From positions 48,018-112,017 of IMG/VR virus record IMGVR_UViG_3300028800_000005: a stretch of 64,000 nucleotides of DNA; one strand, written 5' to 3'. A program made the position numbers and the translations under genes. This DNA is from a virus. Below the pieces are notes generated by a model. The model searched no databases. It was given only the letters and a program-made list of their open reading frames with translations, and had not been told where the DNA came from. Below are positions 26,386-64,000 of the stretch, one piece after another (position 1 is the stretch's first letter; each line of letters begins with the position of its first letter).

Positions 26386-26643
26386 ATGAGCGCAACCGAG
26401 AACTTGAACGGAGAGCAGTTCTCTGACTGGGCCCGTAGCGCCCTGGACCCTCAGGGACCTCTGCGCCAGGGACTTCAGGAAGAGTACGCCCAGCGGGGGC
26501 CCCGCATGGAGCGCAAGGTCGCGGGACAGCGCGTGGATAACTACTGCACCGGATGCGGCGTCCACCAGCCCGTGAACCCGGGAACCTTCAAGTGCCCGAC
26601 CTGCACCGACAAGGCATACGACCGCATGTCTGCGAGGATCTGA
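26386..26643 (+). CDS. QF-leader protein with zinc ribbon
   Basis: Starts MSATENLNGEQF; CTGC...CPTC; GGGGAG SD. Confidence 0.65.
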   Translation: MSATENLNGEQFSDWARSALDPQGPLRQGLQEEYAQRGPRMERKVAGQRVDNYCTGCGVHQPVNPGTFKCPTCTDKAYDRMSARI

Positions 26644-26944
26644 TGCCCTGGCGACTCCCTGACAGTTTCATCGATGACACGCACACCTGGAATAACCACA
26701 ATGACCAGGTGATGTTCGAGCGTGCATTTGAGACTGAGCCCGGGGAGGAGCAGAAGATGGCATTGTCACTTCTTTGCGCGAACCCTGGTACCTCCGAGAA
26801 GTTCATCCGGAACACGCTGCAGAACCCGAGCATGACTGATCGTACCGCTCCGTCCTTCCCGCCGCCTACAATTGAAGAAGTATTCGCACGCAGTCAGGCC
26901 CCCACCGGGGACAATGACATGGCCCGTCAGGCAGGGGCGCATTA

Positions 26945-27898
26945 ATGCCAAAGAAGCAGCCCGCACCGCAAGATAACCCGAATTTCGCGACTCACGTCCA
27001 GAACGTCGTGAACTCGGTCAAGTCGGCTACGCCCGCAGAGACCGAGGCCGGGCTGAAGTGGTACCCGGAAGCGCACGCCCAGACTCTTGACGTCGCGAAG
27101 CGCAATCCCGGGCCGATTGAGGACTACGAGTCCGCCGGGACAATGGACAAGCACGGGGTCGGCGGGAACAACGTCGGTTCAGTTCACCCGGCCATGGCCC
27201 GCGCGGCTGGCGAGGTCGCGGCATTGTCTCCCGCGCGCCCGGCGGGAATGCGATGGGAGCATAACGTCCCGGCAGCCGCTCAGCTAAAGGACGTCACGCC
27301 GGAGCAGCGCGGTTCGATTAATGACGCCCGGTCGATGGCTAAGCGCCAGTCACAGGCAATGGGCGCGCTAAAGTCTGCGAAGAACCGTGGCGCTGGCGTT
27401 GACGAGGCCCAGGGTAACCTGGACAGGGCCTCCGAGGCGTTCAAGGTCCGCTCCGCGCAGGCGCGTGCCCCGTTCAAGGACACGCCACTGGGTCACGCCG
27501 GAGTTCACGCGATCGGAAAGGCCCTGGACATCCAGGCTGGTGACGTCCACCCGTACGAGGCGCTCGGTACCGTCAAGGAACGTCACTTCGCCCATGATCT
27601 TTCCCGGCCGCATGACGCGGAAAAGGTTTTCCACGGCGCTAGCGGGACGATTGACGAGCACATGAAGAACGTCATGGAGGGCCCGGAAGTCAGCCACGGG
27701 TGGAAAGAGAGTGCGGCGGCCCTTAGCGTGCCCCGAACTGCCCCCGACCCCGGCACCCAGGGCGGGTACGTGTACGGCAGGTCCGTCCTGCATGAGGCTG
27801 CCCGGCAACTGCGCATGCGACCTAATGCGGCCCAGCCTGTATCCTGGGTACATGAGAAGGCAACAAAGCCACGCACCGGTAACCGGGGCACTAAGTAG
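26945..27898 (+). CDS. conserved phage protein with HhH-glycosylase-like motif pattern (recalled as DUF7178-like)
   Basis: GLKWYPEAH, VAALSP...W.HN, K..F, TIDEH, Y....AA....P...Q..SW. Confidence 0.45.
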   Translation: MPKKQPAPQDNPNFATHVQNVVNSVKSATPAETEAGLKWYPEAHAQTLDVAKRNPGPIEDYESAGTMDKHGVGGNNVGSVHPAMARAAGEVAALSPARPAGMRWEHNVPAAAQLKDVTPEQRGSINDARSMAKRQSQAMGALKSAKNRGAGVDEAQGNLDRASEAFKVRSAQARAPFKDTPLGHAGVHAIGKALDIQAGDVHPYEALGTVKERHFAHDLSRPHDAEKVFHGASGTIDEHMKNVMEGPEVSHGWKESAAALSVPRTAPDPGTQGGYVYGRSVLHEAARQLRMRPNAAQPVSWVHEKATKPRTGNRGTK

Positions 27899-28376
27899 GA
27901 GTTCACATGGGACGTCCAGTCAGCAGGAGCTGTAACCGCGAGCTTGCGCAGGGCCTTACCGATGGCTCCTACAAGCAGATCGTGAAGGACCGTGGCGGCA
28001 TAGTCGAGTCGTCGACTTACGAGGCGCGCAAGAACCTCAGCGTGCCGCTTTACGGCATCGTGGAGAAGGAAGAGAAGGAACTCGGGGACGCGGTCGGCCC
28101 GGTTCGCACGCCGTACGTCGTCGACAGCCCGAAGCCCGGACTCCTGGTGACCGACCAGGACCGGTAATTTTGACATCGGAGAACTAAACGGACTAGCCTG
28201 AAGTCTAGGCATCGAATGGAGCACCACATGATCATCGGCACGGACGTGCACGGGGACGCAGTAGAACTCCCCGTAGAGCTTAGGGACGAGGGCATCCTCG
28301 ACTTCGGCTCCGAGCACGCGCTTTGCTGGCACTGGGCCGATGACTTTGTGCTCCGCATTTCTACTGAGGAGCATGA

Positions 28377-28721
28377 ATGACGATCGACCGCAAGGTGCAG
28401 TATGGAAGCACGGTCACGGCTGTTACCGGACTGGCTACCTGGCTGCTCACGACATACGCATTCCACGGGTCCATGCCGACTGCGGTTGCCACCGCGCTCC
28501 CTGTCCTGATCGCCTCGGTTATCGGCTGGATTACCTCTTACATGACCAAGCAGGCACCGAAGGACGTCGTCCGCGCGGCGGACAAGCTCGAATCGGATGC
28601 CACCGTGCACCAGATGTCGCTGGCTCTCCTGGCCACGCACACCCCGAACAAGGTCCAGGCACGCGCTTTCCCAAAGGCATACCCGCCAGTCGGCCCGCAA
28701 GCCCCATTCGGGGGACAGTAA
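28377..28721 (+). CDS. small two-TM membrane protein (holin-like)
   Basis: Two hydrophobic segments ending IGWIT; GAGGAG SD. Confidence 0.45.
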   Translation: MTIDRKVQYGSTVTAVTGLATWLLTTYAFHGSMPTAVATALPVLIASVIGWITSYMTKQAPKDVVRAADKLESDATVHQMSLALLATHTPNKVQARAFPKAYPPVGPQAPFGGQ

Positions 28722-29284
28722 TGGCTGGTAAGCGGGTCCGGATTCTCGTATGTCCCCGGTGTGAGACGGTAGAACCCATTGAATGGTGCGCCACCGCTCC
28801 CGGCTCGAATCCTGAGTGCGGGCACGCCCAGTGCGCTGACCTCCTGAACTTCAGGGTAATGCCGCACACTGCCGACCTGGCCGAAGGCAGGGTCTACCAC
28901 AGTAACCTGCTGCTGACTGACGTCGCGTCCGACGACTGGAACCGGCTGTCGACGCGAAAGAACATCCTGAAGAACTTCACCGCCCCGGGTGACGCCACGC
29001 CTTACGGCGCGGAACTCTACGCGATCAAGGAGAACTACCAGGAATCCGCTATGCAGTGCTGGAAGCAGCATAACCGCACGACAGACTGCGGTGAATGGCG
29101 GCACTCTTCAAAGCGCCTGGTTGACCAGCGTGAGGAGACAAAGGATCTCCGTCGTGAGCTAAAACTGGAGACGCGCTCGAAGCACCGGCCGACCATGACC
29201 TACCTCTGTGACTTCTGCCCGATGCGGAGCATCAAGGAGACTAAGGTCGACGCAGAGAAGTACGGATTCCAGAGTCCGTACTGA
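28721..29284 (+). CDS. Cys-rich hypothetical protein
   Basis: CPRC, CW..H...C, YLCDFCP. Confidence 0.6.
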   Translation: MAGKRVRILVCPRCETVEPIEWCATAPGSNPECGHAQCADLLNFRVMPHTADLAEGRVYHSNLLLTDVASDDWNRLSTRKNILKNFTAPGDATPYGAELYAIKENYQESAMQCWKQHNRTTDCGEWRHSSKRLVDQREETKDLRRELKLETRSKHRPTMTYLCDFCPMRSIKETKVDAEKYGFQSPY

Positions 29285-29844
29285 TGATCATTACCTGCGG
29301 CATGTGCCCGGCGTCTTTCGAGCGAACTTTTTATCGCCGGAAGTACTGTAGTGATGCGTGCGCAGCAGCGGCCATTCGCAGGAGAGATCGACTCCGGTAC
29401 CAAAATCCTCCACGCCGGGCGGATTGTAACGCACGCGCCGCCGCGTGGAAGGGCGCTCACCCAGAGACGACGAAGGCGCATATGCACTCAAGGCATTTGC
29501 TTCGCCGGTACAACCTATCGGTAGAGCAGTACCTAAAGATGCTTGATGACCAGGGTGGGGTTTGTTACACCTGTCATCGAACCGAGAACGGAGTGCATTA
29601 CAAACAACTCTCGGTGGACCACGATCACAACTGCTGCCCCGGATCTAGGTCGTGTGGTAAGTGTATCCGCAAGCTACTGTGTCATCAGTGCAATAGCATA
29701 CTTGGTATGTTGGATGAAGATCCAGTGGTGCTCCAGTGTATTGCGGATCGTCTTGACACATTCTTCGGACTCCCAGGTAGTGTGTTCACATCAATGGCCA
29801 ATTATGTTCAAGAATATTCAGTAACCCCTACTAGGAGGAACTAG
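29284..29844 (+). CDS. free-standing EndoVII-type (HNH) homing endonuclease
   Basis: CGMC..KYCSDAC N-terminus; RRYNLS..Y..M..Q.G.CYTC, VDHDH.CC.....CGKCIR.LLC..CN..LG; visibly more AT-rich codons. Confidence 0.8.
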   Translation: MIITCGMCPASFERTFYRRKYCSDACAAAAIRRRDRLRYQNPPRRADCNARAAAWKGAHPETTKAHMHSRHLLRRYNLSVEQYLKMLDDQGGVCYTCHRTENGVHYKQLSVDHDHNCCPGSRSCGKCIRKLLCHQCNSILGMLDEDPVVLQCIADRLDTFFGLPGSVFTSMANYVQEYSVTPTRRN

Positions 29845-30714
29845 TGCTGTTTACCGAGATCGCACTGGCGATCGTCGCCGCTGCATTCCTTTTCATCGAC
29901 GCCCTGTACATTCGGGAGCGCAAGTGGCGTCGTTACACGGAGTACGTCCTGCGCGAGGAGGCCAAGCATCACAACGACATGATGTCGGCCCACCTTGACC
30001 TTATCACGCGGTACGAGCGAGTCCAGCACGGGTACGACCAGGGTGTCCTGGAGGGAATGCGGCAGGCGTACGTGAACGTCCGCGCTACACTGGCCGACGA
30101 ACTCTTTATCACGGGCGGGACAGACGGGGCGAAGCTCCGTGCGTTCGTCCTTCCCTTGCTGGAGAACCTCGGAACTCACGAGACCAAGATCCTGGACGAG
30201 ATGAAGGGGAACACGAAGGCGCGCGAGGCATTCGAGAAGCACGCGGGGAACACCGAGCCAATCAACATGTTCCCGGGCAATAACAAGCCGCAGATAGCAC
30301 AACCAGTGGAGGATAACTGACATGGACATTCCCGAACTCGGACACTCGGCAGCTCGCGCTCGCCAGGAGTCCCCGAAGGCAATTCCCGACGAGGACGACA
30401 TGAGTCCGCTGTCCCCGCTCCCGGACGTCATTCACGCTGACACGGCGTTCCTCGTCTACAAGACCCCAGACGGTCAGGTTATCCTGACGGCGGACCTGAA
30501 CACTCCGGTGTCAGTCCGTCGCGGGCCGCTGAACCACGATATCGTCGGGATGTCACACTGCGTCCTTGAGGACATCCGGCTGATGGGTTCCGCCCCGGCA
30601 ATTGCCCAAACGGTCGTGAACGCGGTTAAGCTGGAGCAGCAGCAGCAGATGGAGCAGATGCAGCAGGCCCAGGTTCTCCAGCAGATCCAGAAGCAGAAGC
30701 AGGGGCACCTGTAA
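29844..30714 (+). CDS. two hypothetical proteins (29844..30320 membrane-anchored; 30322..30714 Gln-rich tail)
   Basis: AGGAGG and GGAGG SDs, N-terminal TM in the first. Confidence 0.6.
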
Positions 30715-30874
30715 TGACCAGTGAAGAGATGCACCTGGATAACGCACTCGCGCGACTGCAAAAGGCGCATGTGTACGACGTCAGCGCCGAGCTGACCTAC
30801 GGGCAGGCATACCAGCGGCTAGTCCAAATGGGCCTCCGTCCACAGATCCGACGCAAGTACCGAGGGACTAAGTA

Positions 30875-31858
30875 ATGATCGACCCGCGTTTCTTCGAGAA
30901 GGCTGCCTCCGGGCAGCCTGCTCCCTCTACGGAGGGAGGTGCCTCCGGGTACTTCTCCCGGCCAGAGCCGATGCTGGACCCTAACCTGTTCGAGAACGGG
31001 CGCTTGCGTGAGAAGGTGCGCAATCACCTGCTCGGAACGCTGGTTAACTGGCTAGACGAGACTATGGCTGCCCATGAGATGCAATCCTGGCTGCATGTCT
31101 GGCTGGCTGGCAGCGGCATCAGTTACCAGTGGGCGGCCAGTCGTGGCAACGGTGACCTTGACGTCCTGTTCGGCGTTAACCTCGGTAAGTTCCAGGCCGC
31201 TAACCATGGCTGGGACTGGTCGGAGGCTGAGACAGCCGCCCAGGTAAACGACGGTATGAAGGAAGGACTCTGGCCGTCGACAGCACAGACCAGGTTCGGC
31301 TTCGGTACCTATGAGGTCACGTACTTCTGGAACCCGGGGACCGGAAGTGACATCAAGAAGATCCACCCGTACGCCGCGTACGACCTGGTGAAGGACAAGT
31401 GGGCAGTACCCCCTCCGCAGCTCCCAGAGATCCCTGGAGAGCTTTACCCCCAGGACTGGTACATCCAGGCCGGGAAAGACTCCGAGGCCGCCCTGAGGCT
31501 CACACGGGCCTTTAACGAGCATATCCAGAAGTACTCGGACGCAATGCCAGGCTCAATGACCCAGCATAACTCCGGAGCGGCCCTGAACGGCATCGTCGCG
31601 GAGGCGAATAACCTATTCACGGACATGCACACCGGACGCCGTGCCGCCTTCAGCGACCAGGGCCAGGGCTACGGCGACTACGCTAACTTCCGGTGGCAAT
31701 TCAATAAGTTGAATGGAGCAGTGCAAGCCCTTTCCCAGATAGCAAACGTTGGTAAGGAAGCGCGGCGGCAACAAGAGACGGAGCAATGGGGAGCGCCCAT
31801 CGATGGGGCAGAGATCGCGCTCCGTCGGGCAGTACAACAGTACCGAGGTCGTTTGTGA
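30875..31858 (+). CDS. nucleotidyltransferase (Pol-beta superfamily)
   Basis: WLAGSGISYQW...GDLDVLF (GS..DxD); YEVTY; AYDL. Confidence 0.75.
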   Translation: MIDPRFFEKAASGQPAPSTEGGASGYFSRPEPMLDPNLFENGRLREKVRNHLLGTLVNWLDETMAAHEMQSWLHVWLAGSGISYQWAASRGNGDLDVLFGVNLGKFQAANHGWDWSEAETAAQVNDGMKEGLWPSTAQTRFGFGTYEVTYFWNPGTGSDIKKIHPYAAYDLVKDKWAVPPPQLPEIPGELYPQDWYIQAGKDSEAALRLTRAFNEHIQKYSDAMPGSMTQHNSGAALNGIVAEANNLFTDMHTGRRAAFSDQGQGYGDYANFRWQFNKLNGAVQALSQIANVGKEARRQQETEQWGAPIDGAEIALRRAVQQYRGRL

Positions 31859-31877
31859 GTGAAGAGGTCTTGCAGGT

Positions 31878-32339
31878 ATGAGGAAGACATTCGTCATCCC
31901 GGTCGAGGGTGTTATTCGCAAGGTAACAGACGGCCAGCCTATTGTGCAGATGGTAGAGCTTATCAGCTCGTTCGCCGGGGAGAACACGTTCATCTACCTG
32001 ACCGACGAGGCTGCCAATGACACCGCTGACTGGCTGAACCTCCACGGCCTTGGGCACACGCTTGTCCTCGGGCGTGATGCTGACCGGCTGATGCAGCTTC
32101 GCCGTATTCAGCATGAGTGGGGATATAACGTAGACTTCGTTATCGAGCCCGATCCTGAGGTTGTCGCGAAGCTCGTCGAGCACGGTTACCCGGTTCTAGC
32201 TTTCTTCCACCCGTACTATTCAAAGCGCGAGTGGAGACCAGATTACAAGTTCGAGGTCACCCCCTGGGACGACATCAAGGAAGGCATCGTGAAGCAGCAG
32301 GCAATGCGCGCGAACGACAGCCGCACACGGAGCGAGTAA
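31878..32339 (+). CDS. HAD-fold-like protein, catalytic Asp absent
   Basis: FVIPVEGVI (motif I degenerate), YLT, T.DWL..HGL, FVIEPDP. Confidence 0.55.
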   Translation: MRKTFVIPVEGVIRKVTDGQPIVQMVELISSFAGENTFIYLTDEAANDTADWLNLHGLGHTLVLGRDADRLMQLRRIQHEWGYNVDFVIEPDPEVVAKLVEHGYPVLAFFHPYYSKREWRPDYKFEVTPWDDIKEGIVKQQAMRANDSRTRSE

Positions 32340-33841
32340 TGTTGCTGTACATGGCAGGTGCCGAGAATAACGAGTGGAGGAACTTTCTCTCTGACCTCGG
32401 TGTCGAGTACGTCTCGATGTCCTTCGTCGGCCTGTCAAAGCGCGTAAAGGGCACGGCGAAGTGGTCGATTGCCTCGCACTTCGAGGGGCAGCATGTTCTC
32501 CTTGACGCTGGCGGGTACTCATTCAACAAGAAGGACTCCACCGCGACCGAGGAAGAGGCGATGGAGACAGCGAACGCTTACATGGCGTTCGTCACCCAGA
32601 ACATTGACGCGGTCGACCTTGTTACTGAGTTCGACGCGAATATACTCGGCCGTGACTGGCTGCTGGCGATGCGAGAGGATTTCTATGACGACCTCGGGGA
32701 CAAGTTTTGCCCAGTATGGCATGAAGACACCAGTACAACGGAACTGGAACGACTCGCGAGCCGCTACGCGCATGTGGGAGTCCTGGCTTCAGGACTTGAC
32801 GAGCACCTTGTGCCTATACTCAATGGATTGGTATCGCGTTACGGTGTCAAGTTCCACGGTCTAGGCATCACCGCGACAAAGACCTCGTTGTGCCAGGCGG
32901 TGAAGTGGGACTCGATCGGCTCCAAGAGCTGGATCTCACCGTCCATCGACGGCGATACTATCATCTGGACCGGGCAGGAGCTGAAGCGCTACCCGGCTAA
33001 GCTTAAGGACCAGGCCAGGCGACGCCACAAGAGCTACCTGGAGCGTCAGGGCTTTGACGCCGACAAGATAGTAGGGGACGACCGCAAGGAGGTTCTACGG
33101 CTCTCTGTGTGGTCCTGGCAGCAGTTCATGGAGTCGCTCGCACATGCCAGGGTGTTCAATCCTTTCGGTGGTGGCCCTATCGGAGTTACTCCCCAGGGTG
33201 ATAACGGGGATACTGAAAATGAGGAACGGCATGTAGACGGTGTTGATCACCCTGTGCCTGACCCGGGGAACCGTGGGTTGCTCCCCGCCGTCGTCGAACG
33301 ACGTGATCCCGTGCTCCTGCCGGTCATGGGAATCGAGGTAATCACCAATAAGTCCGAGGACGAAGATGGTGAGGATTTCGAGGAGCGGGTCGTAACCACG
33401 CCCGCAAAAGCACCCTTGATGCAGTGCAACACATGCCACATCAGGGACAATTGCCCGAAGGCAAAAGCGAACGCTGAGTGTGCCTACGAGATACCGATCC
33501 AGGTAACCTCGAAGAACCAGATGCGCAGGCTTCAGGACGCGCTGATTGAGATGCAATACCAGCGTGCGGCGCGGATGGTGATGTTCGAGCAGGCCCTTGG
33601 CGGATACTCAGACCAGAATGCATCGGCCGAGATAGACAGGCTTCAGAAGCTGATTAACGCCAAGCGTGAGGCAGAGAAGACAGGCTTCACCCTCCACATG
33701 GAGGCACACGACGACAAGGGCGTTGGCGTCATGAGCCGGGTGTTTGGTCGCGACGCGGGCGACGCTGTCACGGCTCTCCCTGAGGTTGTCGACGCCACAC
33801 AGTACATTGAAGCCGAGATCGTAAACGAGACGGAAGAGTAA
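32339..33841 (+). CDS. TGT/DpdA-like TIM-barrel protein with Cys-rich C-terminal domain
   Basis: LYMAG, VLLDAGGYSF, EFD, PVWH, FHGLG, DSIGS.SW; CNTC.....CP......C. Confidence 0.6.
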   Translation: MLLYMAGAENNEWRNFLSDLGVEYVSMSFVGLSKRVKGTAKWSIASHFEGQHVLLDAGGYSFNKKDSTATEEEAMETANAYMAFVTQNIDAVDLVTEFDANILGRDWLLAMREDFYDDLGDKFCPVWHEDTSTTELERLASRYAHVGVLASGLDEHLVPILNGLVSRYGVKFHGLGITATKTSLCQAVKWDSIGSKSWISPSIDGDTIIWTGQELKRYPAKLKDQARRRHKSYLERQGFDADKIVGDDRKEVLRLSVWSWQQFMESLAHARVFNPFGGGPIGVTPQGDNGDTENEERHVDGVDHPVPDPGNRGLLPAVVERRDPVLLPVMGIEVITNKSEDEDGEDFEERVVTTPAKAPLMQCNTCHIRDNCPKAKANAECAYEIPIQVTSKNQMRRLQDALIEMQYQRAARMVMFEQALGGYSDQNASAEIDRLQKLINAKREAEKTGFTLHMEAHDDKGVGVMSRVFGRDAGDAVTALPEVVDATQYIEAEIVNETEE

Positions 33842-34014
33842 CTCCCCAACGTGCGTATTCCTAACAACGGTCCCCTGGAGGGCGAGACTCAGGTCTGCCC
33901 CCGCTGCAAGGGCACCGGGTTCACGGACCAGTATGACGAGGACGTCTGCCTTACGTGTCTGGGGGAGGGCGAGGTCCCTGTGCTCCAGGTCACACGGAAG
34001 ACACCCTAGATCTG

Positions 34015-34044
34015 TTGCCAGCACCCCCATCGGCCGACTAGACT
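34015..34044 (+). promoter_or_regulatory. SigA/HrdB-type promoter
   Basis: TTGCCA-18 nt-TAGACT upstream of 34067. Confidence 0.55.
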
Positions 34045-34066
34045 GGAGTTGTCGGAAGGGGACACC

Positions 34067-35299: not shown

Positions 35300-35827
35300 G
35301 AATGCAGGCAGCACAGCCAGACAGCCGGTACGCTTACCGGCTAGTCTGCGGAGACATAGGCCTTGGTTCAAAGGACCTATCGGAGCACGACCACCTGTTT
35401 TGCGCAGTTCACCGGAATTATGAGCGCATCGCAGGGTTCGGCATCAGGTGGAGCAGGCTCCAGGCTGAAGCCGCAAGTGAGAGTGCCAGTGTTGTCTAGG
35501 TAGGAGGTGATCCTCTATCTCCCCTGTCGGAGGGGTAATTTCGACAACACGATCCGGTCCCCGGTATACTGGGGATCGGATCATTTATTGGAGGAACATG
35601 GACGTCAACGACTACATCAGGGGCCTTTCGGACCAGGATCTGAAGAAGGAGATCCGCCGTCGTAACGAAGAGGTCGCGCGTGAGGCCCGTGAGTGGATGG
35701 AACGGGAGTACCGGGAGCGGCAGGCTGTACGGGCCGGTGCCAGGTCTGAGTTCTGCGCGGCACAGGGTATCACACCGGAGCAGTTCGAGGCCGTCGAAGA
35801 CTACCTGGACGAAGAAGCGAATTCGTA

Positions 35828-37049: not shown

Positions 37050-37082
37050 AACCCCCTCTGTACGGCCCAGAGGGGGTTTTTT
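37050..37082 (+). terminator. rho-independent terminator
   Basis: AACCCCCTCTG-loop-CAGAGGGGGTT followed by a T run. Confidence 0.85.
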
Positions 37083-37347
37083 CATGCCCTCTTATTTTGC
37101 GTTCAGCAGGACGCGGGCGGGTATGATTGTGGTATGCCCATAGACGTCGACTGGTCCCACCGGCACCACATGGTCAAGTGCCCTGTGTGCCACGTGCTGC
37201 ACTGTGCTTGCCAGTGCCCGCGTGACCGCTGGCGCTACGACATTGTTGTCCGCCGGGCGGCTGACGGGCTGATGTACTGGGACGCTAGCGAGCACGCCTG
37301 GTGCAAGGTCATAGGCTCGAAGCACGAATCCGACTGGAGGCAGCACA

Positions 37348-37551
37348 TTGAGCGCAACTGAGGTACTAAGTTCCCTTCAGTTCAAGAGGCACCCCGTGAG
37401 GGCCGCAGCGCAACGTGTGCACGCTGCTGAGAAGCACGCGGCTGGTCGCCTCGGCCACGGTGTCGACCGGGCGCTAGACGCCCTTGAGGGCCCGCATGAC
37501 CCAGGGAACTGGAACGATCACCCGGATGACATCGGGGAGATCACACCGTGA
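37348..37551 (+). CDS. QF-leader small protein
   Basis: TTG start with GGAGG SD; MSATEVLSSLQF. Confidence 0.55.
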   Translation: MSATEVLSSLQFKRHPVRAAAQRVHAAEKHAAGRLGHGVDRALDALEGPHDPGNWNDHPDDIGEITP

Positions 37552-37711
37552 CTGAGGATCGTGACCAGGCGGCCCTGACCCTGCTGAAGATGATGTCCGA
37601 GCTGAACTTCGACCAGATAGCGTTCCTCGTCGGTTACATGACTATCAAGGACATCGACCTCGCAGCCAGGGCAATGACAGCACTCCAGTTCACCGACGTC
37701 GGGCAGGTCAA

Positions 37712-38086
37712 ATGAGCGCACAAGAGAATTTGAATCCTCAGCAGTTCTATCATGGTTCTAACCAGGAGTTCAAGCCAGGTGACATGCTGACTCCTGCGGG
37801 CGGTAAAGCCCACGCTGACTCCTGGGATAACAAGGATTACTCGCCGGGAGAGTACGTCCACACGACGCTTGACCCAGGGACGGCACATCTTGTCGCGGGG
37901 CGAAAGAACGATTACGAAGGGCTAGGTCACGTCTACACGGTAGAGCATACCGGCCCGGTAGAAGAGGACAAGTCGATGAACGCCGACATGCAGTCCGCCG
38001 GAGCGAGGAACTTCCGCACCAAGAGCCCTGTACGTGTCACCGGGGAAGATCATGACTGGTGGGAACGCCAGCAGAGGGGCGTGTAA
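37712..38086 (+). CDS. Arr-like ADP-ribosyltransferase 1 (QF leader)
   Basis: FYHGS...FKPGDML.P, YVHTTLD, HVYTVEHTG.VEED, FRTKSPVRVTGE. Confidence 0.75.
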   Translation: MSAQENLNPQQFYHGSNQEFKPGDMLTPAGGKAHADSWDNKDYSPGEYVHTTLDPGTAHLVAGRKNDYEGLGHVYTVEHTGPVEEDKSMNADMQSAGARNFRTKSPVRVTGEDHDWWERQQRGV

Positions 38087-38364
38087 TGGCAGCCACAGAT
38101 AACCTGAATCCCCACCAGTTCTACCACGGGTCGGACCATAAGTTCGGCCGAGGGGCAATGGTGAAGCCAGGGCATGCCCCGCTGAATTCACCGTCCCCTG
38201 AGGAGCACGCTTACTTCGCGCGGACGCCGGAAGAGGCAGAGGGATACGGAAGGTACGTCCATGCGGTAAACCCGACAGGGGACTACGAGGACGACCCTAA
38301 CGCACAGGGGGCACTGCGCTCACGTGATCCCCTGCGCGTCCGGTATACCCACTCGACGTCCTAA
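38086..38364 (+). CDS. Arr-like ADP-ribosyltransferase 2 (QF leader)
   Basis: FYHGS, HAYFA, VNPTGDYEDDPN, RSRDPLRV. Confidence 0.8.
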   Translation: MAATDNLNPHQFYHGSDHKFGRGAMVKPGHAPLNSPSPEEHAYFARTPEEAEGYGRYVHAVNPTGDYEDDPNAQGALRSRDPLRVRYTHSTS

Positions 38365-38721
38365 ATGAATTCGGGAGTGTAATGGCAGCGCAAGATAACC
38401 TGAATAAGAAGCAGTTCTACCACGGTACTAGCGCTGCCCTGAAGCCTGGCGATTACCTGTCTCCCAAGGGCGCTAATGAGTTCGGCAGGCATGAGACGGA
38501 GAGCGGGAGAAGCCACGTCTACGCAACACTCGATGAGGACACAGCGTGGGGGTACGCCATAGACCATGCAGGGTCCGTCGACCGGGCTCACGTCTACCAG
38601 GTTCAGCCAACGGGGAAGACAGAGCCCGACCCGAATGCCGGTGAGTACCCGGCTATAAGGACACGCGCTCGCATGAAGGTCACACGGGAACTGGCCTACT
38701 AGCGCTAAATGAATTCGGGAG
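38361..38721 (+). repeat. 17-bp perfect direct repeat CTAAATGAATTCGGGAG (38361-38377, 38705-38721)
   Basis: Exact match flanking the third ART gene. Confidence 0.85.
38382..38702 (+). CDS. Arr-like ADP-ribosyltransferase 3 (QF leader)
   Basis: FYHGT..LKPGD.L.P, HVYAT, VYQVQPTG..EPDPN, RT...KV. Confidence 0.8.
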   Translation: MAAQDNLNKKQFYHGTSAALKPGDYLSPKGANEFGRHETESGRSHVYATLDEDTAWGYAIDHAGSVDRAHVYQVQPTGKTEPDPNAGEYPAIRTRARMKVTRELAY

Positions 38722-52070: not shown

Positions 52071-52073
52071 TAA

Positions 52074-54744: not shown

Positions 54745-55200
54745 TTTCTAAGTGAGGCGAATATGGCGGAACCAGACCTGACCACGGTCTACGAGGTCGG
54801 ATGGCATTCGGGCTTTGGCGGGATGTCAAGCACGCACACGCTGAACCCGATCCAGTTCCGGCACCAGCTTCACGAGAAGTTCGGTCACCTGGACTACTTC
54901 GAGATCGCGGGCGCGGGCCGGTACACACCGGACAAGATGCCGGGTGACATCGACCAGTTGCCATCGAACACTAATCCTCCGGCGCAGAAGCCGCCGGGAG
55001 CGCGTCGCTGACGCAAACACAGGGGAGGAACCCAGATGATCATCCTTATCTCGACTGTCGTCCTGGCCGTCCTGTTCGCAGTCTTCGTCCTGGCCGCGAT
55101 GTTCGGTGCGTTCGACCACCTGCCTCACTAGTTTTGACCGAACGAGCATCGTCGATGGTATGCTCGGTCACATGAGCCCTAACCGAAAGAGGTATCCCGG

Positions 55201-56613: not shown

Positions 56614-57862
56614 GCCGGAGTACTGGAACTACACCATAGAGACTATCTCGGGACCGGCAGTCGACCGGCTGCTGTGCGAGGAACTAACACAGGAGGCACG
56701 CGAGAATGAACTTCGAGACAAGGCTAGGCCTGTACGCCGGGGCCAACAAGCTCCCCGAGCAGAACGCGCACCGGAAGGTTCTGGGCAAGGACGGGCTAAC
56801 GGGGGCGCAGCGCCGTCGCCTGCTTAAGAAGGACCGGAGCCAGTTCGCGGCCGAGGTCGGGGCTGAGAGCGACAAGGGGACTAAGTGAGTACGGACGACG
56901 TCGAAGCCTTCACCAGGAACCCTTACCTGGCTGTAGCGAATAAGGGATCGGATCTCTTCCACGTGCAGTACTTTGGCCCGGGAGGGTACTACCACTACCA
57001 CCTGGAAGACGGTTACTGCACGGACAAACACTGCGCCACTTCCGTTCCCGAGGAGGTACTACGCGATGGTTATCGGTAACCTTCTCCCGGCGATCCTTAA
57101 GAGGACGCCCCGGAGGGCGCGTACGGTGTCCCTGAAGTTCGAGACCCCCGAGGCGTCCCAGCGGTTCGAGCAGTGGCTTCATGCCGAGGGGTTCCCCCTC
57201 TGGCAGGACTACGAGCCCTACGAGTAAACAGTCAACCGTGCTCGGCTCTCTGGTAATATTACAGTGAGCCGAGCTTTTCGTTTGACCTAATGTCCGGAGC
57301 AAAAATAAATGAGTGCCATACTGGCGTTTGCGGTCATCTTTCCGTGCATTGTGGTCATCGGAGGGGTTGTCCTCGCCCTGGTCCGTATCGATGTCCAGAG
57401 GTGGATTCTGAAGGAGGTCGTCTCACTGCTGAAGAATGATGACACTCCCGTCGCGGTATACGCGCACCAGAGCCGCGAGGAGGCGAAAGCCGCCCGGAAG
57501 GAAGCCGAGGCGGTCAAGGAAGCAGCCAGCGCGCTCCGGCAGGACGTAGCGGAGACGCACACGGACGTACGTCAGATTCGGGACCTTCTTATCCAGCATA
57601 TTTCCGACCGCGAAATCCACAAGGGGCTGTAATGGATAACGAGTACGCCGACGCGAAGACGGAGTGGTCGGACTGGAACGCTAATACCGCGTTCAACACC
57701 GGGCTGGCCAAGGCCAAGGGTACACCCGGTATACAGGCCAGGTCACGTAATGCCGAGTTCCAGACGGCAGCGAGCCGCCCGCACATGGAGCCGGGCCGGT
57801 TCACGGACCAGATGCTAGCGCGCGCCTGCCATGCAGGAAAGCAATACGCGGGGGTGTAGCCT

Positions 57863-58033
57863 GTGCCCTTTAAATCCGAAGCCCAGCGCAAGTTTCTTTA
57901 CGCTAACCAACCTGAAGTTGCCGAGCAGTGGTCCGAGGAAGACAAGAAGAAGCGCAAGGGCCGAAAGGACGAGCACAAGAAGCACCAGCGGGCCAAGCAC
58001 TTCGAGGAGGGCAGTGGCCGTGGCAGCGACTGA
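57863..58033 (+). CDS. small basic phage protein of the MPFKS.AQR type (not in ORF track)
   Basis: Manual translation from GTG: MPFKSEAQRKFLYANQPEVAEQWSEE... Confidence 0.65.
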   Translation: MPFKSEAQRKFLYANQPEVAEQWSEEDKKKRKGRKDEHKKHQRAKHFEEGSGRGSD

Positions 58034-58520
58034 TAACATGAATAAGGTTCAGTTCTACCACGGGAATGCGACCCCTCTGGAAGAGGGTGACGTAATCGAG
58101 CCGGGGCACCGGGCTAACTGGAGTAAAGACCTTACTAAGGACTCGAAGCACCAGTACGCGTTCGCGACGACGAACCTCACGGATGCCGTCCGTTACGCTG
58201 GCCGCGCGGAATACAAGCAGCAGAACCGGAATATGGACCGGGCCTACGAGGAGCATTTCCCCGGCGTCCCTCGCGGCGCGGTAACAATGGGGATGCGCAA
58301 GAAGGCCGGTCTCGAATCCGATGACGCCCTGACGGGAAACGTCTCAGGGCATATCTACAAGGTTGAGCCGGTCGACTCCTCCTCGGTCTCCGTCGACCCG
58401 GAGGACGAGAACAGGAAGCGCGGGAAGGACCCGGATGCTTTCCGGAGCAAGGCAGGCTGGCGGGTTACCGGTAAGGTCCCGTACCAGGAGGCGCGGAAGC
58501 AAGCGGGGTTCAAGTACTAA
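58020..58520 (+). CDS. Arr-like ADP-ribosyltransferase 4 (QF leader, internal insertion)
   Basis: GTG start after GAGGAGG; AATDNMNKVQFYHG..L.EGDVIEPG, YAFAT, IYKVEP...DPE, FRSKAGWRV. Confidence 0.75.
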   Translation: MAATDNMNKVQFYHGNATPLEEGDVIEPGHRANWSKDLTKDSKHQYAFATTNLTDAVRYAGRAEYKQQNRNMDRAYEEHFPGVPRGAVTMGMRKKAGLESDDALTGNVSGHIYKVEPVDSSSVSVDPEDENRKRGKDPDAFRSKAGWRVTGKVPYQEARKQAGFKY

Positions 58521-58849
58521 TGAGCGCGCGCGAGAACCTTAATCCCCAGCAGTTCTTTCACGGGACGCAGGAAGAGGTCAGCCCTGGCGACGTTATCAAG
58601 CCCGCCGTTGCGGCCGGTAAGGACATTAACTTCCCGGGACTGAGTTCCCCGGAGCACGCCTACGCCACCAAGAGCAAGCGCGATGCTAAGTTCTACGGAA
58701 GCCATGGGGGCAGCTACCCGGACACGAACGTCTACAAGGTGGCCCCCGTGAACCCGGCCGATGTTGAGCCGGACCCGAACGAGTACGCGGCTAACCCCCG
58801 CATGCACAAGGACTTCCGGTCTAAGTCCGGATTCAAGGTGGTGTCCTAA
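58520..58849 (+). CDS. Arr-like ADP-ribosyltransferase 5 (QF leader)
   Basis: MSARENLNPQQFFHGT...PGDVI.P, HAYAT, VYKVAP..EPDPN, FRSKSGFKV. Confidence 0.8.
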   Translation: MSARENLNPQQFFHGTQEEVSPGDVIKPAVAAGKDINFPGLSSPEHAYATKSKRDAKFYGSHGGSYPDTNVYKVAPVNPADVEPDPNEYAANPRMHKDFRSKSGFKVVS

Positions 58850-59157
58850 TGAGCGCTCAGGACCATCTCTCGCCCCACCAGTTCAAGCACCCGAAGCTTC
58901 GCGAGGTTGGCGGGGCACTCGCCATGACCGCCGTGCTTGGCGGGGGAGTAGTCGCCCACGTTCCGTTTGACTCGGACCACGCATTCCGAGGGGCGTACGG
59001 TGTCGCATACAAGAAGCCACCGGTCGGCCAGAGGAGTGACGAGCGTGATGCTTACACTACGGCGAGTAGCAAGATTCGCGGGCAAAAGGTGACGGCCGAG
59101 TGGAATTCGTCTAACGCGCAGCTCGGGCACACTGAGTCCCATCTGGACATCATGTAA
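58849..59157 (+). CDS. QF-leader protein with hydrophobic segment
   Basis: MSAQDHLSPHQF followed by VGGALAMTAVLGGGVVA. Confidence 0.6.
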   Translation: MSAQDHLSPHQFKHPKLREVGGALAMTAVLGGGVVAHVPFDSDHAFRGAYGVAYKKPPVGQRSDERDAYTTASSKIRGQKVTAEWNSSNAQLGHTESHLDIM

Positions 59158-59859
59158 TGCCGAACAGAGACTTTAATGAGCTTGTCGACGTCCTGCGGCC
59201 CCCTGCTCCGGAGATCCCCCGGGCCGAGCAGCTCGAACGGGAGCGGCTAGGGATCTTCTACAGCCATGAGCCAGGGACGGCCCTGCACGCCCCGGAGAAC
59301 CCCGCTCGCGAGTTCCAGCCCGACAACGGGCCAGTTGAGCCGATCCCGATGGGCCGGGCCGCTGTGTGCGTCCTGGACGAGCGCGGGGGGCATGTCCGTC
59401 TTGGGGAGAACTGCCCGCACTTCGAGGGCTACGACCGGGACACTGTGACCGAGGTAACACTCTAACTGGTTCCGCGAGGGCGGCCCACCGGGTAAGCTCA
59501 AGGTACAAGCCAACCGGAGGGGGACCCGATGCAAGCCGAACTTCTGACCTACAAGATCACCTGGTCCGACGCGCACGACGAGGCGCACATAGTGGTCCGC
59601 TTCGGTGCCGAGCTAGCGCGCCAGTACATCAACGCGGTGTTCAACACCCCCGGATGCACGCTTCTGCGAGTGGAGACCGCATGAGTACCAAGCCGGAGCT
59701 GTTCAGCTTCTACCAGTGGCCCCATACGCACATCGTCCACATCACCCACGCCAACCCCGATGGCACTGTGACCATACAGCGCGTCAGCGGGGTTACCGCG
59801 AACGGCGGCATATGGTTCGGGGTTCCCCAATCCAAGCTCACCAGGGTTAGGAGCACGGC

Positions 59860-60810
59860 ATGAGCGGCCAGGACAAGATTTACGAGATGATCACCGAGCG
59901 GATGATCGCCCAGCTCGAAGCTGGCGTCGTCCCGTGGCGGAAGCCCTGGGCAGCCGCCGGGATCGGGGTCCCTAGGAACATCAAGTCCGGCAAGGGCTAC
60001 CGTGGCGTTAACGTCTTCCTGCTCGCCGGAGACTACACGTCCCCCTGGTGGGGCACCTACGACCAGATGGCCGAGAAGTCCGGGGCCAGGAAGGTTTCCG
60101 ATAACTCCCGGCGCGGGAACCACTGGGAGAAGGACGGCGAGTACTGGACCGGCCTTAAGGGCGAGAAGTCGACGGTCATCGTCTTCTGGAAGCGCCTGGT
60201 CGTGGACGACAAGGAATCGGAGAACGGCAAGAAGGTCATCCCGATGCTCCGTTACTTCCACGTCTTCAATGCCGAGCAGGTCCAGGGCATCCCTGAGAAG
60301 TACCTCGCCCCGAAGACTCCGGAGACAGTGGACCCGGACGTGGTCCTTGAGACCGCGCAGAATATCCACGACGAGTACCTGGCGCGAGAGGGTGCACCCC
60401 GTTACCGCGAGACCGGTAACCGGGCGTTCTATAACCTGGAAGACGGGGACACGATTACCGTCCCCGCCCGCGCTGCCTTCCCGGACGAGCGTGATTACCA
60501 CAGCACGCGGTTCCATGAGGAGACGCACTCCACCGGGCACTCCAGCCGCTGTGACCGTCCTGGCGTCGTTAACTTCGACCACTTCGGGACCGGCCAGTAC
60601 GCCAAGGAAGAACTCGTCGCGGAAATGGGCGCGTCGATGCTTATGGCTATCGCGGGCATCGAGACCAAGGAAACGTTCGAGAACTCGGCCGCGTACGTCC
60701 AGAACTGGCTCAAGAACCTCAAGGACGACCACAAGCTGGTAGTGGCCGCAGCGGGTCAGGCACAGAAGGCAGTGGACCACATTCTAGGCGTTACCTACGA
60801 GGAGGCATGA
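59860..60810 (+). CDS. ardC: ArdC-like antirestriction protein (ssDNA-binding + zincin-like domain)
   Basis: LEAGVVPWRKPW, YRGVN..LL, W.TY.Q, GEKS, FHVFNAEQ, AFY, HE..HSTGH, YAKEELVAE, SAAY..W. Confidence 0.92.
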   Translation: MSGQDKIYEMITERMIAQLEAGVVPWRKPWAAAGIGVPRNIKSGKGYRGVNVFLLAGDYTSPWWGTYDQMAEKSGARKVSDNSRRGNHWEKDGEYWTGLKGEKSTVIVFWKRLVVDDKESENGKKVIPMLRYFHVFNAEQVQGIPEKYLAPKTPETVDPDVVLETAQNIHDEYLAREGAPRYRETGNRAFYNLEDGDTITVPARAAFPDERDYHSTRFHEETHSTGHSSRCDRPGVVNFDHFGTGQYAKEELVAEMGASMLMAIAGIETKETFENSAAYVQNWLKNLKDDHKLVVAAAGQAQKAVDHILGVTYEEA

Positions 60811-61061
60811 TGGAAATCCGTAACCACCCGGACCAGTTCACCCTGACCGACAAGGAGACATTTGAACTCCTGACGGACCTGGGGGCGTCCCAGGACGCCG
60901 CGACCGAGTCCGTTAACTGGTCGCACGAGCATGGCTTCGCGCGGGCTCCCCTGGGCAAGTGGTACGTCCAGGTTGACCACGCCGGGGACCGGAAGTTCAT
61001 CGTGTCGGTCCATGCTAAGCGCGCCAGTAAGGTGACCCGGGACATCCGGTAGACTAGACCC

Positions 61062-61415
61062 ATGAGTAGTCGAAAGGCAGAGTTCTGGAAGACCCTCCAG
61101 GCCGCGAAGCTTCAGGTCAAGCAGTCCGAGTCCGAGGGTGACCTCCGGCGTGACATGTTCTACGCGTCAAAGCCGGGTCCCCCCGACATCGACTTCGACC
61201 CTACTCCAAGCTCTGACCGGTCGAATCCCCGGACTGCCGCGATGCAGTACTGGCAGGATCAGCAGGTCATGCGGATTTCCTGGGGGGACGGCGGGACCCC
61301 GTACCTCTATTACGACGTCTCCCCGGACGAGGCTAGGCGCTTTACCAAGGTGACCAGCCCCGGGCGGTTCGTGAACGGTACTCTCAATATGCACGCCTAT
61401 GGCAAAGACCAGTAA
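61062..61415 (+). CDS. KTSC-domain protein
   Basis: Y...M.I.W.DG..Y.YYDV......F....SPGRFVN. Confidence 0.7.
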   Translation: MSSRKAEFWKTLQAAKLQVKQSESEGDLRRDMFYASKPGPPDIDFDPTPSSDRSNPRTAAMQYWQDQQVMRISWGDGGTPYLYYDVSPDEARRFTKVTSPGRFVNGTLNMHAYGKDQ

Positions 61416-62147
61416 TTACCATTTGGCACAGCGGGGGGACTAGGCTCCTGCGCAGGAACACTAAAAGGGAGCACTGACATGGATCTCAAATGGAAGCTAC
61501 TCGGCTTGTGGTGGCGCATCCGGAGCTTTAACCCGCCAGTCATGGCGCGGCGCATCAAGCTAGCTCCGGACGCTGCCAGGGCCGACGTCGTCCGGACCTA
61601 CGAGACGGAGTACCCCTACCGGCCGGGCTACGGACTGGTACTGCACCTGTACGGCTCGCACGGCGTCCTCCTGGGCGTCCTGCAGCCTAAGGTGGACCTG
61701 GACGACGCCGCTATCGACGCGCGCCTCCTGCTGGCTCTCCGGGCCGCTGAGGGCCCCGCGTCCTGGCGGAAGCGGGCATGGCTGGCTGGCCGGGCCGCCA
61801 TCGATGCCGGGGACCTGATCGAGTACCACGCGCGCAGCGCGGAAGAGGCACGGGAGTTCTCTGACATGCTCGGCCTGGACGACTGGCGCACCAAGGTAGC
61901 CCGCGACGATGCGTAACAAGATCCAGGTAGTACCTGGCTGGGACCCGCACCGGTACGACAAGCTGGAGCGGAAGGTCCAGCGGCTGGATACCTCGCTGCT
62001 GCTGGACTACGCCGACGCGGCCGGGTCCGGCATGGCACGGGCGTTCGGGGACTTTCGCCGGGGCGGGGACACGGTGTCCCTGGAGGAGGTCCAGGAGGGC
62101 CTGATGTCACTGTGGGCGATCGTCCAGACCCTCAAGGCCAGGGCCGT

Positions 62148-62175
62148 TTGACACCTGCGCAGGGCCGGGTAGACT
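62148..62175 (+). promoter_or_regulatory. SigA-type promoter
   Basis: TTGACA-16 nt-TAGACT upstream of 62204. Confidence 0.65.
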
Positions 62176-62203
62176 GAAGGTACACCTTGGAGGAGGGGTT
62201 CAG

Positions 62204-62841
62204 ATGACAGGCTACAGCACCGACCAGGAGCGCACCGCCCAGTTCTTCGACGACCTGAAGCAGCATCGCCACGAACAGAACGTGCGTACGGCCGAGACCG
62301 TCGCCGTCGCCGTCGCGGCAGGATACGCGGCTAGCCAGTGGGAGAAGAAGAACCAGGGGCGCAAGGCGGTCATCACGCAGATGTCCGACCCCGACCGAAG
62401 CTCCGCAGTCCGGGCCCGGCGAATCGGTGCCTGGCTCTGGGTGCTGGCCCTCCTGTTCCTGGTCCTGTGCCTGGCCCCCGCAGTCACCACGTCGTTTGTC
62501 TTCATCCCCGCGCTCGTCGCCGCATTCGCCGCAGGCGGGTTCCGGAAGTACGGTAACGACATCGTCGCGCGGGCAGCGACCCAGCTTCAACAGGAGGCAG
62601 CCAACTCATGATTATCCTGATACTCGCAATCGTGGCGCTCTGCATCGTGTACGACTGGAAGAATTCCCAGTACGTCTCACGGAACGTGAACATCGCCTAC
62701 GGCGTCTCAATTCTCTTTCTCGCCATCATCGGCCTGGGGATCATCGCCTTCGCGCTCATGATCGTGTCGGTAATCCACACCTATCTCGCCAAGCAAAAGG
62801 CGATCAAGGCCCGTAACGACCAGGACTGGGAGCGTAAGTGA
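62204..62841 (+). CDS. two membrane proteins (62204..62611, 62608..62841)
   Basis: Two hydrophobic helices each; GGAGG SDs. Confidence 0.55.
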
Positions 62842-63212
62842 AGGTCTACCTAGCCGCTGACTACGCGCGGAAAGACGAGATCCAGGGCATCCGGGTTAGC
62901 CTGGAAGACCGGGGTGTCAAGGTCACCAGCCGCTGGCTGGACACGGCCGACGATGGCATTCCCTGGTCGGCCGAAGCAAAAATAGACCTGGACGACATCC
63001 GGGAGGCCGACGTGGTAGTCAGTTTCACCACGGGGGCGCACGCACGCGGGGGCAGGCATGCCGAGTTCGGCATTGCCGTCGCGCTGGACAAGGGCCTGAT
63101 CCTGGTTGGCCCGCGTGAGCATGTCTTCCATTTCCTTCCGGGTGTCCTGCTCCTGAATTCTGTCTCTGAACTTCTCTCCTGGGCCGATGTTTACACGGAG
63201 GCGCACCGCTGA
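62838..63212 (+). CDS. nucleoside 2-deoxyribosyltransferase-like protein 2
   Basis: KVYLAA, TSRW, DLDDI..AD, GGRHAEFG.A, VFH. Confidence 0.7.
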   Translation: MKVYLAADYARKDEIQGIRVSLEDRGVKVTSRWLDTADDGIPWSAEAKIDLDDIREADVVVSFTTGAHARGGRHAEFGIAVALDKGLILVGPREHVFHFLPGVLLLNSVSELLSWADVYTEAHR

Positions 63213-63631
63213 TGGTCCACCGGAAGAAGTCCGCCGAGAAAGTGGCCCCTAAGGCTCCGGCTAAGCCCGAGACCTCGGCCGCGAGAATTCGAGGGTGGGC
63301 GAAAGAGAAGGGCATCCCCTGCCCCGAGCGCGGTCGAATCCCGTCCAAGGTGATGGAGCTTTACGCGGGGAAGAACATCCCGGGCCTGATCGAAGAGGCG
63401 GTATCCGAAGAGGTCAAGGACAACCCGATCTTCCATGCCCATGGTAAGCGGCACGATGCAGCCTGCCAGTTCTGCACGATAAACACGGTCTCTCACGGGA
63501 CCCGGCACGATCTCTGCCCGGGGACGATTAGGAACGCTGACCCGCGTCACCGCCATCGCGTCTGGACCTGCCCGTGCTGGCAGCAGAACCCCGAGGGGCA
63601 CACCCGGGCGAAGGACTACAGGCCCGCCTGA
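63212..63631 (+). CDS. Lsr2-like DNA-binding domain fused to a Cys/His-rich domain
   Basis: IRGWAKEKGI.CPERGRIP..V...Y (RGR AT-hook-like grip); C-terminal CQFC..H..CPG..WTCPC. Confidence 0.75.
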   Translation: MVHRKKSAEKVAPKAPAKPETSAARIRGWAKEKGIPCPERGRIPSKVMELYAGKNIPGLIEEAVSEEVKDNPIFHAHGKRHDAACQFCTINTVSHGTRHDLCPGTIRNADPRHRHRVWTCPCWQQNPEGHTRAKDYRPA

Positions 63632-63666
63632 TGATCCGGTAAACTGGAGAAGTCGACAGGAGTCCA

Positions 63667-64000
63667 ATGAGCGCGCTTGATAACGTATCCAGTCAGCAGT
63701 TCGTCAACCAGGTGCACAAGACTGGTGGCGCATCTGTCCACGCTAACTCCGGAAAGCTTCTGCCCCCCGGTAAATCCGGGTTCATGGTTGGCGGCACCGC
63801 GCCTAGCATGCAGGTTCCGTCCGAGGAGTTCGGGCCCGAGCACGTCCAGAAGTTCGCTGCCTCTCTGCCAGCCGACCACAGTACTTATGTCGGCGGCTGG
63901 GAGCATGAGGGCCAGGTCTACCTGGACGCTTCCCAGAAGGTTTCCCGGGCCAAGCAGGCGACGCGGCTAGGCAAGAACCGTAACCAGATCTCCGTCTGGG
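63667..64000 (+). CDS. QF-leader protein, possibly SAM-lyase-like; truncated by window end (not in ORF track)
   Basis: Manual translation MSALDNVSSQQF...GFMVG...VGGWEHEGQVYLDAS....A..LG..RNQISVW; AGGAG SD. Confidence 0.6.
   Translation, partial: MSALDNVSSQQFVNQVHKTGGASVHANSGKLLPPGKSGFMVGGTAPSMQVPSEEFGPEHVQKFAASLPADHSTYVGGWEHEGQVYLDASQKVSRAKQATRLGKNRNQISVW

Follow-up and report, generated by a model that had tools for sequence, protein, structure and literature searches.

A shared N-terminal peptide tag on unrelated accessory proteins of BRock-related myoviruses and its candidate readers

Ten tagged genes in one phage genome

We analysed a 64,000-nucleotide stretch of viral DNA (the window), bases 48018-112017 of the IMG/VR record IMGVR_UViG_3300028800_000005, in which nine scattered genes open with the same short peptide. 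This peptide, here called the tag, has the consensus M-[SA]-A-x-[DE]-N-[LMV]-[NS]-[P/x]-x-Q-F around a core [DE]NL[NS]PxQF, and a tenth gene, just past the window end, carries it as well (Table 1). The source record (G000 among the genomes compared) is 112,017 bp long, with a terminal repeat of 108 bp and a completeness rating of 100%. The literature searched gives no published description of the tag, in agreement with an earlier note on this DNA, which was made from the sequence alone and knew of none.

A strict regular expression, run on the six-frame translation of the whole genome, recovered all nine window starts listed by the earlier note, every one on the + strand, and matched nowhere else. 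Seven of these nine copies begin with ATG. A scan with a profile of the leader had also been proposed: our 12-column hidden Markov model (HMM) gives ten hits at 16-27 bits in the genome, the next best scoring 6.8 bits. Chance would supply about 0.00-0.01 matches to our DNA patterns in the window. With a looser start-anchored pattern the genome scores 8 forward hits and the control 0-1.

The tenth HMM hit belongs to an Arr-like ADP-ribosyltransferase (ART), the sixth of this genome, in which the tag is internal: QF falls at residues 22-23, behind an upstream extension (SERYNQ[WF]L...) that is kept in relatives. The fixed length described by the earlier note, with QF always at residues 11-12, holds for the nine window copies but not as a rule, as the distance between start and core is anywhere from 1 to 16 residues in relatives (for example MNLNPQQF, MSNLSPKQF and MKQTPREPDHDPSEPRNLSGVQF); twelve residues is a local habit. 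A possible weak copy at 54823 was not counted as a carrier, because it stands inside a longer conserved open reading frame (ORF).

Table 1. Tagged genes and other features of the genome. Positions refer to the window unless marked 'genome'; PF12120 is the Pfam Arr-ms domain.
Feature	Position	Strand	Length, start	Tag	Body or remark
Carrier 1	26386..26643	+	85 aa	MSATENLNGEQF	CxxC...CxxC zinc-ribbon-like body
Carrier 2	37348..37551	+	67 aa, TTG start	(M)SATEVLSSLQF	Basic Ala/His-rich body
Carrier 3	37712..38086	+	124 aa	MSAQENLNPQQF	Arr-like ART; PF12120 E 3.5e-11 from residue 12
Carrier 4	38086..38364	+	92 aa	MAATDNLNPHQF	Short Arr-like ART; PF12120 24.7 bits
Carrier 5	38382..38702	+	106 aa	MAAQDNLNKKQF	Arr-like ART; PF12120 E 1e-12
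Carrier 6	58020..58520	+	166 aa, GTG start behind GAGGAGGG	(M)AATDNMNKVQF	Arr-like ART with long insert; PF12120 E 1.1e-7
Carrier 7	58520..58849	+	109 aa	MSARENLNPQQF	Arr-like ART (FHGT); PF12120 E 1.5e-6
Carrier 8	58849..59157	+	102 aa	MSAQDHLSPHQF	Orphan body with Gly/Ala-rich hydrophobic stretch
Carrier 9	63667..64000, over the record junction to genome base 155	+	126 aa	MSALDNVSSQQF	Conserved body
Carrier 10	genome 148-531 (tag at genome 181-216)		GTG start 12 codons upstream of the tag	RGAQENLSKPQF-YHGS	Arr-like ART
Tag-like ORF, not counted	54763-55011	+		MSSTHTLNPIQF at 54823	MSSTHTLNP[IL]QF about 20 residues in; 88% conserved in G017
Peptidase gene	16324-16965	+	213 aa		BPH/HslV-like proteasome-fold peptidase
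Capsid-like ORF	28216-28380	+	54 aa		35 residues 57% identical to positions 280-314 of the major capsid protein of this phage
Hairpin	37050-37093	+			Strong, terminator-like; 11-bp stem then TTTTTTCAT
ARC/Mpa-type proteasomal ATPase gene	genome 598-2115 (L083:598-2112), outside the window				Full-length: AAA and both proteasomal OB domains
Major capsid protein gene	genome 16544-17545 (L083), outside the window				LRFEQF at residues 46-51, LTASQF at 91-96
Moron	genome 24173-24970 (L084:5173-5967), outside the window				Galactosyltransferase-like

What stands behind the tag? Five of the window carriers are Arr-like ARTs, as the earlier note had read them: all match Arr-ms from residue 12 with E values of 1e-12 to 3e-5, the short one at 38086 falling 0.3 bits below the 25-bit cut-off. 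The AlphaFold model of the 38382 protein has a predicted local distance difference test (pLDDT) score of 79, with residues 1-7 below 50 and the first strand at residues 12-16, and its top Foldseek hits are the Arr structures 9IAF and 2HW2 (E 1.5e-7, template modelling score 0.71). The presence of six diverged ART paralogues in one lytic-type phage would argue for targets other than rifamycin.

The four remaining bodies of the window look different. At 26386, Pfam hints of a zinc ribbon are weak, base composition is coding-like (GC of 0.62/0.51/0.80 at codon positions 1/2/3), and the relative G008 has a positional counterpart with a different body after the same upstream gene. The carriers at 58849, coding-like with a GC3 of 0.73, and at 37348 have no family match in Pfam or by profile comparison; for the latter we found no orthologue either, and its coding status is ambiguous, GC1 (0.75) being higher than GC3 (0.68). 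The 63667 protein, whose GC by codon position is again coding-like, matches only PHROG 17808 (function unknown). The label 'S-adenosylmethionine-lyase-like' that the earlier note gave it found no support, and its fold model (pLDDT 53) is too poor for a fold search. Its body has two homologues at 58% and 53% identity, P0004 with a variant tag, MSATDHLNPQLF, and P0005 with no tag (MSHEEF...).

Could the tag simply be the N-terminal part of the Arr-like family, and the four other carriers decayed or frameshifted ART genes? ARTs do make up six of the ten carriers of this genome, and in them the tag Phe is the first residue of the Arr-ms domain. Yet an ART profile compared with each of the four bodies, leader removed, gives probabilities below 1%, and a six-frame search with an ART HMM finds only the six ARTs, with no remnants in other frames. 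In relatives the tag is found on GNAT, ParB-like and R-S-E-type bodies. Some ARTs also have extra residues between the Gln or Gln-Phe of the tag and their own FHG motif (QF-PEL-FHGS, Q-L-FHGT; alignment A4), and the tag is disordered in the AlphaFold model. We thus reject descent by decay, which we hold to be extremely unlikely. The earlier note had itself named decayed ARTs or untranslated ORFs as the outcomes that would undo its proposal: ART decay is ruled out, three of the four genes (26386, 58849 and 63667) are coding-like and 37348 is ambiguous.

The carriers lie partly in tight arrays. The start at 38086 overlaps the preceding stop (TAATG), and the hairpin, scanned as a strong terminator at 37050-37078 just upstream of the 37348-38702 array, suggests that this array starts its own transcription unit; beyond it, a promoter and terminator scan around the arrays gave little of use. 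In the close relative G017, other DNA takes the place of the whole trio at 58020-59157.

The genome as a whole is that of a myovirus and encodes, among other proteins, a terminase and a tail sheath together with an SPP1-type portal, a coiled-coil scaffolding protein and a Phage_capsid_4 major capsid protein. Cultured relatives with genomes of 112-116 kb, the Streptomyces phages BRock (genus Borockvirus), LuckySocke, Alone3, GiJojo and pSt2308, have capsid proteins 66% identical to the one encoded here. The head genes run portal-scaffold-capsid with no protease, and the cultured relatives are annotated likewise. Relatives of the capsid protein are encoded in at least 587 viral contigs. The cultured phages were reached through the capsid protein search only: megablast and tblastn searches of GenBank phages with the window region and with single carriers found nothing useful, and word-based searches of a large protein collection gave 2-3 relatives per query. 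The 54-aa capsid-like ORF at 28216, in the replication arm, looks like a stray fragment of the capsid gene, judging from its similarity to residues of the complete protein.

A portable module in one sub-clade

A degenerate DNA pattern of the tag (about 37 bits) has 22 matches in 19 viral contigs with GC contents of 41-67%, all of them at the start of an ORF, here of 65-151 aa. These tag-bearing contigs are fragments of roughly 100-kb phages with several carriers each, including arrays of 7-11 consecutive tagged genes in the low-GC relatives, and 7 of the 14 that were searched encode the capsid protein at 62-97% identity. Taken together, the window genome and the 19 contigs provide 55 non-redundant carriers, all single-domain proteins of 57-166 aa, whose bodies fall into at least 24 BLAST clusters. 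Of 54 carriers, Pfam assigns 8 to Arr-ms, about 7 to GNAT families and 2 to ParB_N; a further family with YRG...HW[ST] motifs looks, by eye, like ARTs of the R-S-E type, and the remaining bodies are orphans. The tag therefore precedes enzymes of at least four unrelated folds, in addition to about 20 orphan bodies, and its arrays turn over even among close relatives. In the low-GC relatives the tag arrays are directly followed by the gene of a 164-aa protein that belongs to no known family (L105:4385-4879 and relatives); between contigs it keeps 93-96% identity, against only 60-80% for neighbouring genes.

Conservation ends exactly at the Phe: column entropy is 0.14 bits up to there and exceeds 3.4 bits immediately behind it. 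Within the tag, synonymous codons vary freely: across carriers Leu uses all six of its codons and Ser both codon boxes, which agrees with the codon variation the earlier note had seen between the copies of this genome. Many unrelated bodies, a conservation that stops at Phe and free synonymous change all argue that the module is selected as a peptide. The 63667 homologue lacking the tag, and the disorder of the tag outside the ART fold, further bear out the portability claimed at first. We are thus highly confident that the tag is a portable, disordered N-terminal module kept by selection on the peptide, and that such a module needs one common reader or partner. There is equally little doubt, in our opinion, that its users are uncultured myoviruses of roughly 100-115 kb that form a sub-clade among the relatives of Streptomyces phage BRock, and, as a third point that we consider well established, that it stands before unrelated accessory proteins mostly of host-modifying types (Arr- or R-S-E-like ARTs, GNAT, ParB/Srx-like).

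Must there be a reader at all? A shared start might be a by-product of gene origin or expression, either as the 5' end of a cassette for recombinational swapping of bodies, or as an N-terminus that favours translation initiation or protein stability. The tight arrays with TAATG stop-start overlaps and their quick turnover between close relatives would fit such an origin, as would two regularities of the ten genome copies, in which CAG-TTC is invariant and Ser at position 2 is written AGC in all six cases, the other codons varying. In addition, a start in M-S/A-A is one that favours removal of the initiator Met. However, the peptide is kept over GC contents of 41-67% in spite of free synonymous change, with Leu written in six ways, and initiation rules leave the conserved N, L, P, Q and F unexplained. 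Some copies of the motif, moreover, stand 12-16 residues into the protein, behind upstream extensions that are themselves conserved, and 36 nucleotides with many differences would make a poor target for recombination. Both variants together appear to us quite improbable.

The same DNA pattern was run on 596 Gb of cellular sequence, one genome per species for 185,579 bacterial and archaeal species. The matches are mostly an internal stretch of a Pseudomonas/Azotobacter gene, a putative iron-type alcohol dehydrogenase from its sequence, plus scattered chance matches. Mimicry of a host protein was thus rejected: the tag pattern copies no conserved bacterial N-terminus among these genomes. The only cellular carriers come from the Actinomycetota metagenome-assembled genome MFD05377.bin.2.76, where two 98% identical genes (L062:5665-6144 and L077:3055-3534) on two large bacterial contigs encode 159-aa proteins beginning MSAQDNLS[RK]AQF. 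These copies belong to one mobile element; the one inspected adjoins a Prim-Pol gene and a DDE transposase.

Within the capsid lineage the tag marks a sub-clade, with a patchy distribution. Of the 12 complete genomes of the lineage that were checked, only the present one has it. In seven complete genomes with capsid proteins 63-71% identical, the start-anchored pattern gave 0-2 hits, which is the control level. The cultured BRock, LuckySocke, GiJojo and pSt2308 show no tag enrichment in pattern counts with controls, which were used in place of a profile search, the latter having given no match in BRock.

Candidate readers of the tag

As our best single guess, offered tentatively and in keeping with the earlier note, the tag may serve in capsid loading. 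Its reader would be a part of the assembling head, in the manner of the leader of the T4 internal proteins and Alt. The tag would load a changeable set of enzymes into the virion, and these enzymes would enter the next cell together with the DNA. Since scaffolding is here the task of a separate protein and a canonical prohead protease is lacking, carriers would either keep the tag or lose it to a non-canonical peptidase.

The N-terminal leader of the T4 internal proteins is their sole shared part and directs packaging (PMC3012670, PMC12373910). Our tag is like this capsid-targeting sequence of Ip1-3 and Alt in that a short N-terminal leader is the only likeness among unrelated, fast-evolving accessory proteins (PMC3012670, PMC12373910). 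In both, a genome has several such genes in clusters whose loci vary, a search for the leader turns up new members, and the cargo includes an ART, T4 Alt being a packaged one. The two systems differ in host phylum and lineage, ours being that of actinobacterial BRock-type myoviruses; in the S77 (gp21-type) prohead protease, which this genome lacks; and in the tagged cargo, a putative virion content that here consists mostly of enzymes, not of restriction inhibitors. The leader sequences themselves are presumably different, with no resemblance that is apparent to us.

Several observations favour head loading. ART and ParB-like domains are typical of proteins that are injected with phage DNA (PMC5512222). 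No carrier exceeds 166 aa, although ORFs above 170 aa make up 37% of those called. In four relatives, carriers lie inside the virion-gene block, co-oriented with conserved structural genes that they abut or overlap: there are three such carriers in G004 and two in G005, and G007 and G012 have an ART carrier about 60 nucleotides after the capsid gene. In the present genome, the ARC ATPase and terminase genes follow directly on the last two carriers. The slot that the carriers of G004 and G005 occupy in the virion-gene block is that of the galactosyltransferase-like moron in this genome.

A longer list weighs on the other side. The complete 112-kb genome has no match to PF03420 (S77), PF04586 (S78) or PF00574 (ClpP), nor does it have a Prp peptidase (PF04327), so that a T4-style cycle of loading and cutting would have to do without the usual enzyme. 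The capsid and scaffold proteins carry no tag, either by the leader HMM or when their N-termini are read directly. The window carriers are mostly in the non-structural arm and those of most relatives outside the head module; among 80 loci chosen solely by their capsid gene, just three have a strict tag less than 10 kb from that gene. Tag-less relatives share the same head proteins (capsid 63-71% identical, 66% for the cultured phages), therefore a receptor in the head would have to be either a conserved site that these relatives leave unused or a protein specific to the sub-clade. The tag can do without a free N-terminus, since it may stand 12-16 residues behind the start. The hydrophobic stretch of the 58849 carrier would sit oddly inside a head. 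The very presence of carriers in virions is a hypothesis. Complex prediction with the capsid protein, the scaffold and the first 36 carrier residues (A5, A6, A7) returned a score of 0.00, which is no answer and counts neither way.

Some of these points would suit a reader outside the head. The tag could dock its carriers, without packaging, on one hub of the infected cell that gathers or controls many modifying enzymes; RNA polymerase, the ribosome, a chaperone or a phage-encoded regulator or inhibitor could be this hub. The case for a common reader is then the same as under head loading. Most carriers, both here and in the low-GC relatives, are in arrays of the non-structural arm, the variable distance of the tag from the N-terminus is like that of short linear docking motifs, and head genes common to tag-less relatives fit a reader that is not in the head. 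However, we identified no candidate hub, and the absence of any matching conserved bacterial N-terminus in the 185,579 species' genomes speaks against docking too. Some carriers lie within virion operons, which is odd for early-acting enzymes unless they are carried in the virion. Docking is possible in our view, but rather unlikely.

The window also encodes a peptidase of the BPH/HslV-like type, with Thr right after Met in relatives, whose profile matches BPH (5OVU, E 1.3e-8) and HslV. The tag might then be a signal for processing or degradation by this Thr1 peptidase, here perhaps with the ARC/Mpa-type ATPase: a cut after Phe may activate the enzymes, or the effectors may be destroyed in a timed manner. 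Carriers and HNH-type endonucleases aside, the peptidase gene is the only one of G000 that is found in at least five low-GC tag-bearing contigs but not in BRock. It lies 1-3 kb from the tag arrays of low-GC relatives and is absent from 10 of the 11 tag-less complete genomes (the BRock-group phages and six of the seven others). Proteasome-type peptidases cut after hydrophobic residues, and the invariant Phe that ends the tag fits such a site. The ARC ATPase gene, for its part, adjoins two carriers, sitting between the last two of them and the terminase.

The association is nevertheless weak, and we set the peptidase aside as a specific partner of the tag. It is far commoner than the tag, occurring in 264 viral contigs, with strict tags near 12 of the 80 kept loci. 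The complete genome G023 has the peptidase and no tags, and G008 and G010 have tags but no peptidase within 37 and 51 kb of sequence. Among complete genomes, one has both, one has the peptidase only and ten have neither, a distribution that is not significant, in genomes that are not independent. The ARC ATPase was rejected as a universal reader, as it is confined to G000-like records, being absent at its syntenic place in G001 and from all other complete relatives. Besides, a cut after Phe12, the first residue of the fold in the model, would be predicted to clip the first Arr strand. Activation and timed destruction, taken together, are improbable.

Known systems and significance

Another family of short N-terminal peptides deserves comparison. 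The peptides cleaved off by the cysteine protease Prp, found on ribosomal protein L27 and on the capsid and scaffold proteins of Staphylococcus phage 80alpha, have roughly 9-14 residues, a (D/N)-L...Q-F core and a Phe before the mature protein (PMC9405229, PMC5744158), and like our tag they are common to unrelated proteins. The Prp motif reads MLxx(D/N)LQ(F/L)F followed by A(S/H)KK (PMC9405229), whereas the tag has three residues between L and QF and variable residues behind it. The capsid and scaffold proteins carry the motif in 80alpha but not in this phage, and the likely hosts, Actinomycetota, are not among the phyla listed with the long form of L27 (PMC9405229). The different spacing and the lack of a PF04327 match in the genome led us to reject a relation to Prp and long L27. 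The major capsid protein does contain two L-x-x-x-Q-F strings (Table 1), the first of which is followed by AIKK, recalling the context in which L27 is cleaved. As tag-less BRock has the same strings, a link to the tag is improbable.

Polyvalent proteins and other effectors that enter along with phage or plasmid DNA resemble the carriers in content. They too comprise ART, ParB/Srx-like and other host-modifying domains, for which a role in the first minutes of infection has been inferred (PMC5512222). Theirs are fused in one giant polypeptide, or to MuF or portal proteins, whereas here they are separate, small, single-domain, tagged proteins. Under the head-loading reading, the tag may be the loading signal of a new capsid-targeting system of actinobacterial myoviruses, which would bring swappable single-domain enzymes into a scaffold-built, protease-less head and deliver them with the DNA. 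Its cargo of ADP-ribosyltransferases, acetyltransferases and ParB-like nucleases or NTPases would then be an 'unbundled' counterpart of the polyvalent proteins. This is a guess that we put forward with due reserve. Short disordered terminal peptides that direct diverse cargo into an HK97-fold shell or a contractile-tail particle are also found in encapsulin cargo and as N-terminal signals of contractile injection systems; the encapsulin peptides are mostly C-terminal, with sequences different from the tag.

The patchy distribution of the tag, in one of 12 complete genomes, makes the question of its reader open to comparison and to simple fusions. A reader that proved to be a host hub or the proteasome-like peptidase would also be new biology, though of another kind. 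An address label, if the tag is one, allows host-directed effectors to be listed from sequence only in a large group of uncultured Streptomyces-type phages, and it flags dozens of new candidates for host takeover or anti-defence, most of them with orphan bodies. If, more specifically, the tag is a head-loading signal, it would be the first outside the T4 group to be so sharply defined, and one that works without the usual protease. Injected effectors could then be found by their sequence, and foreign proteins could be loaded into actinophage particles.

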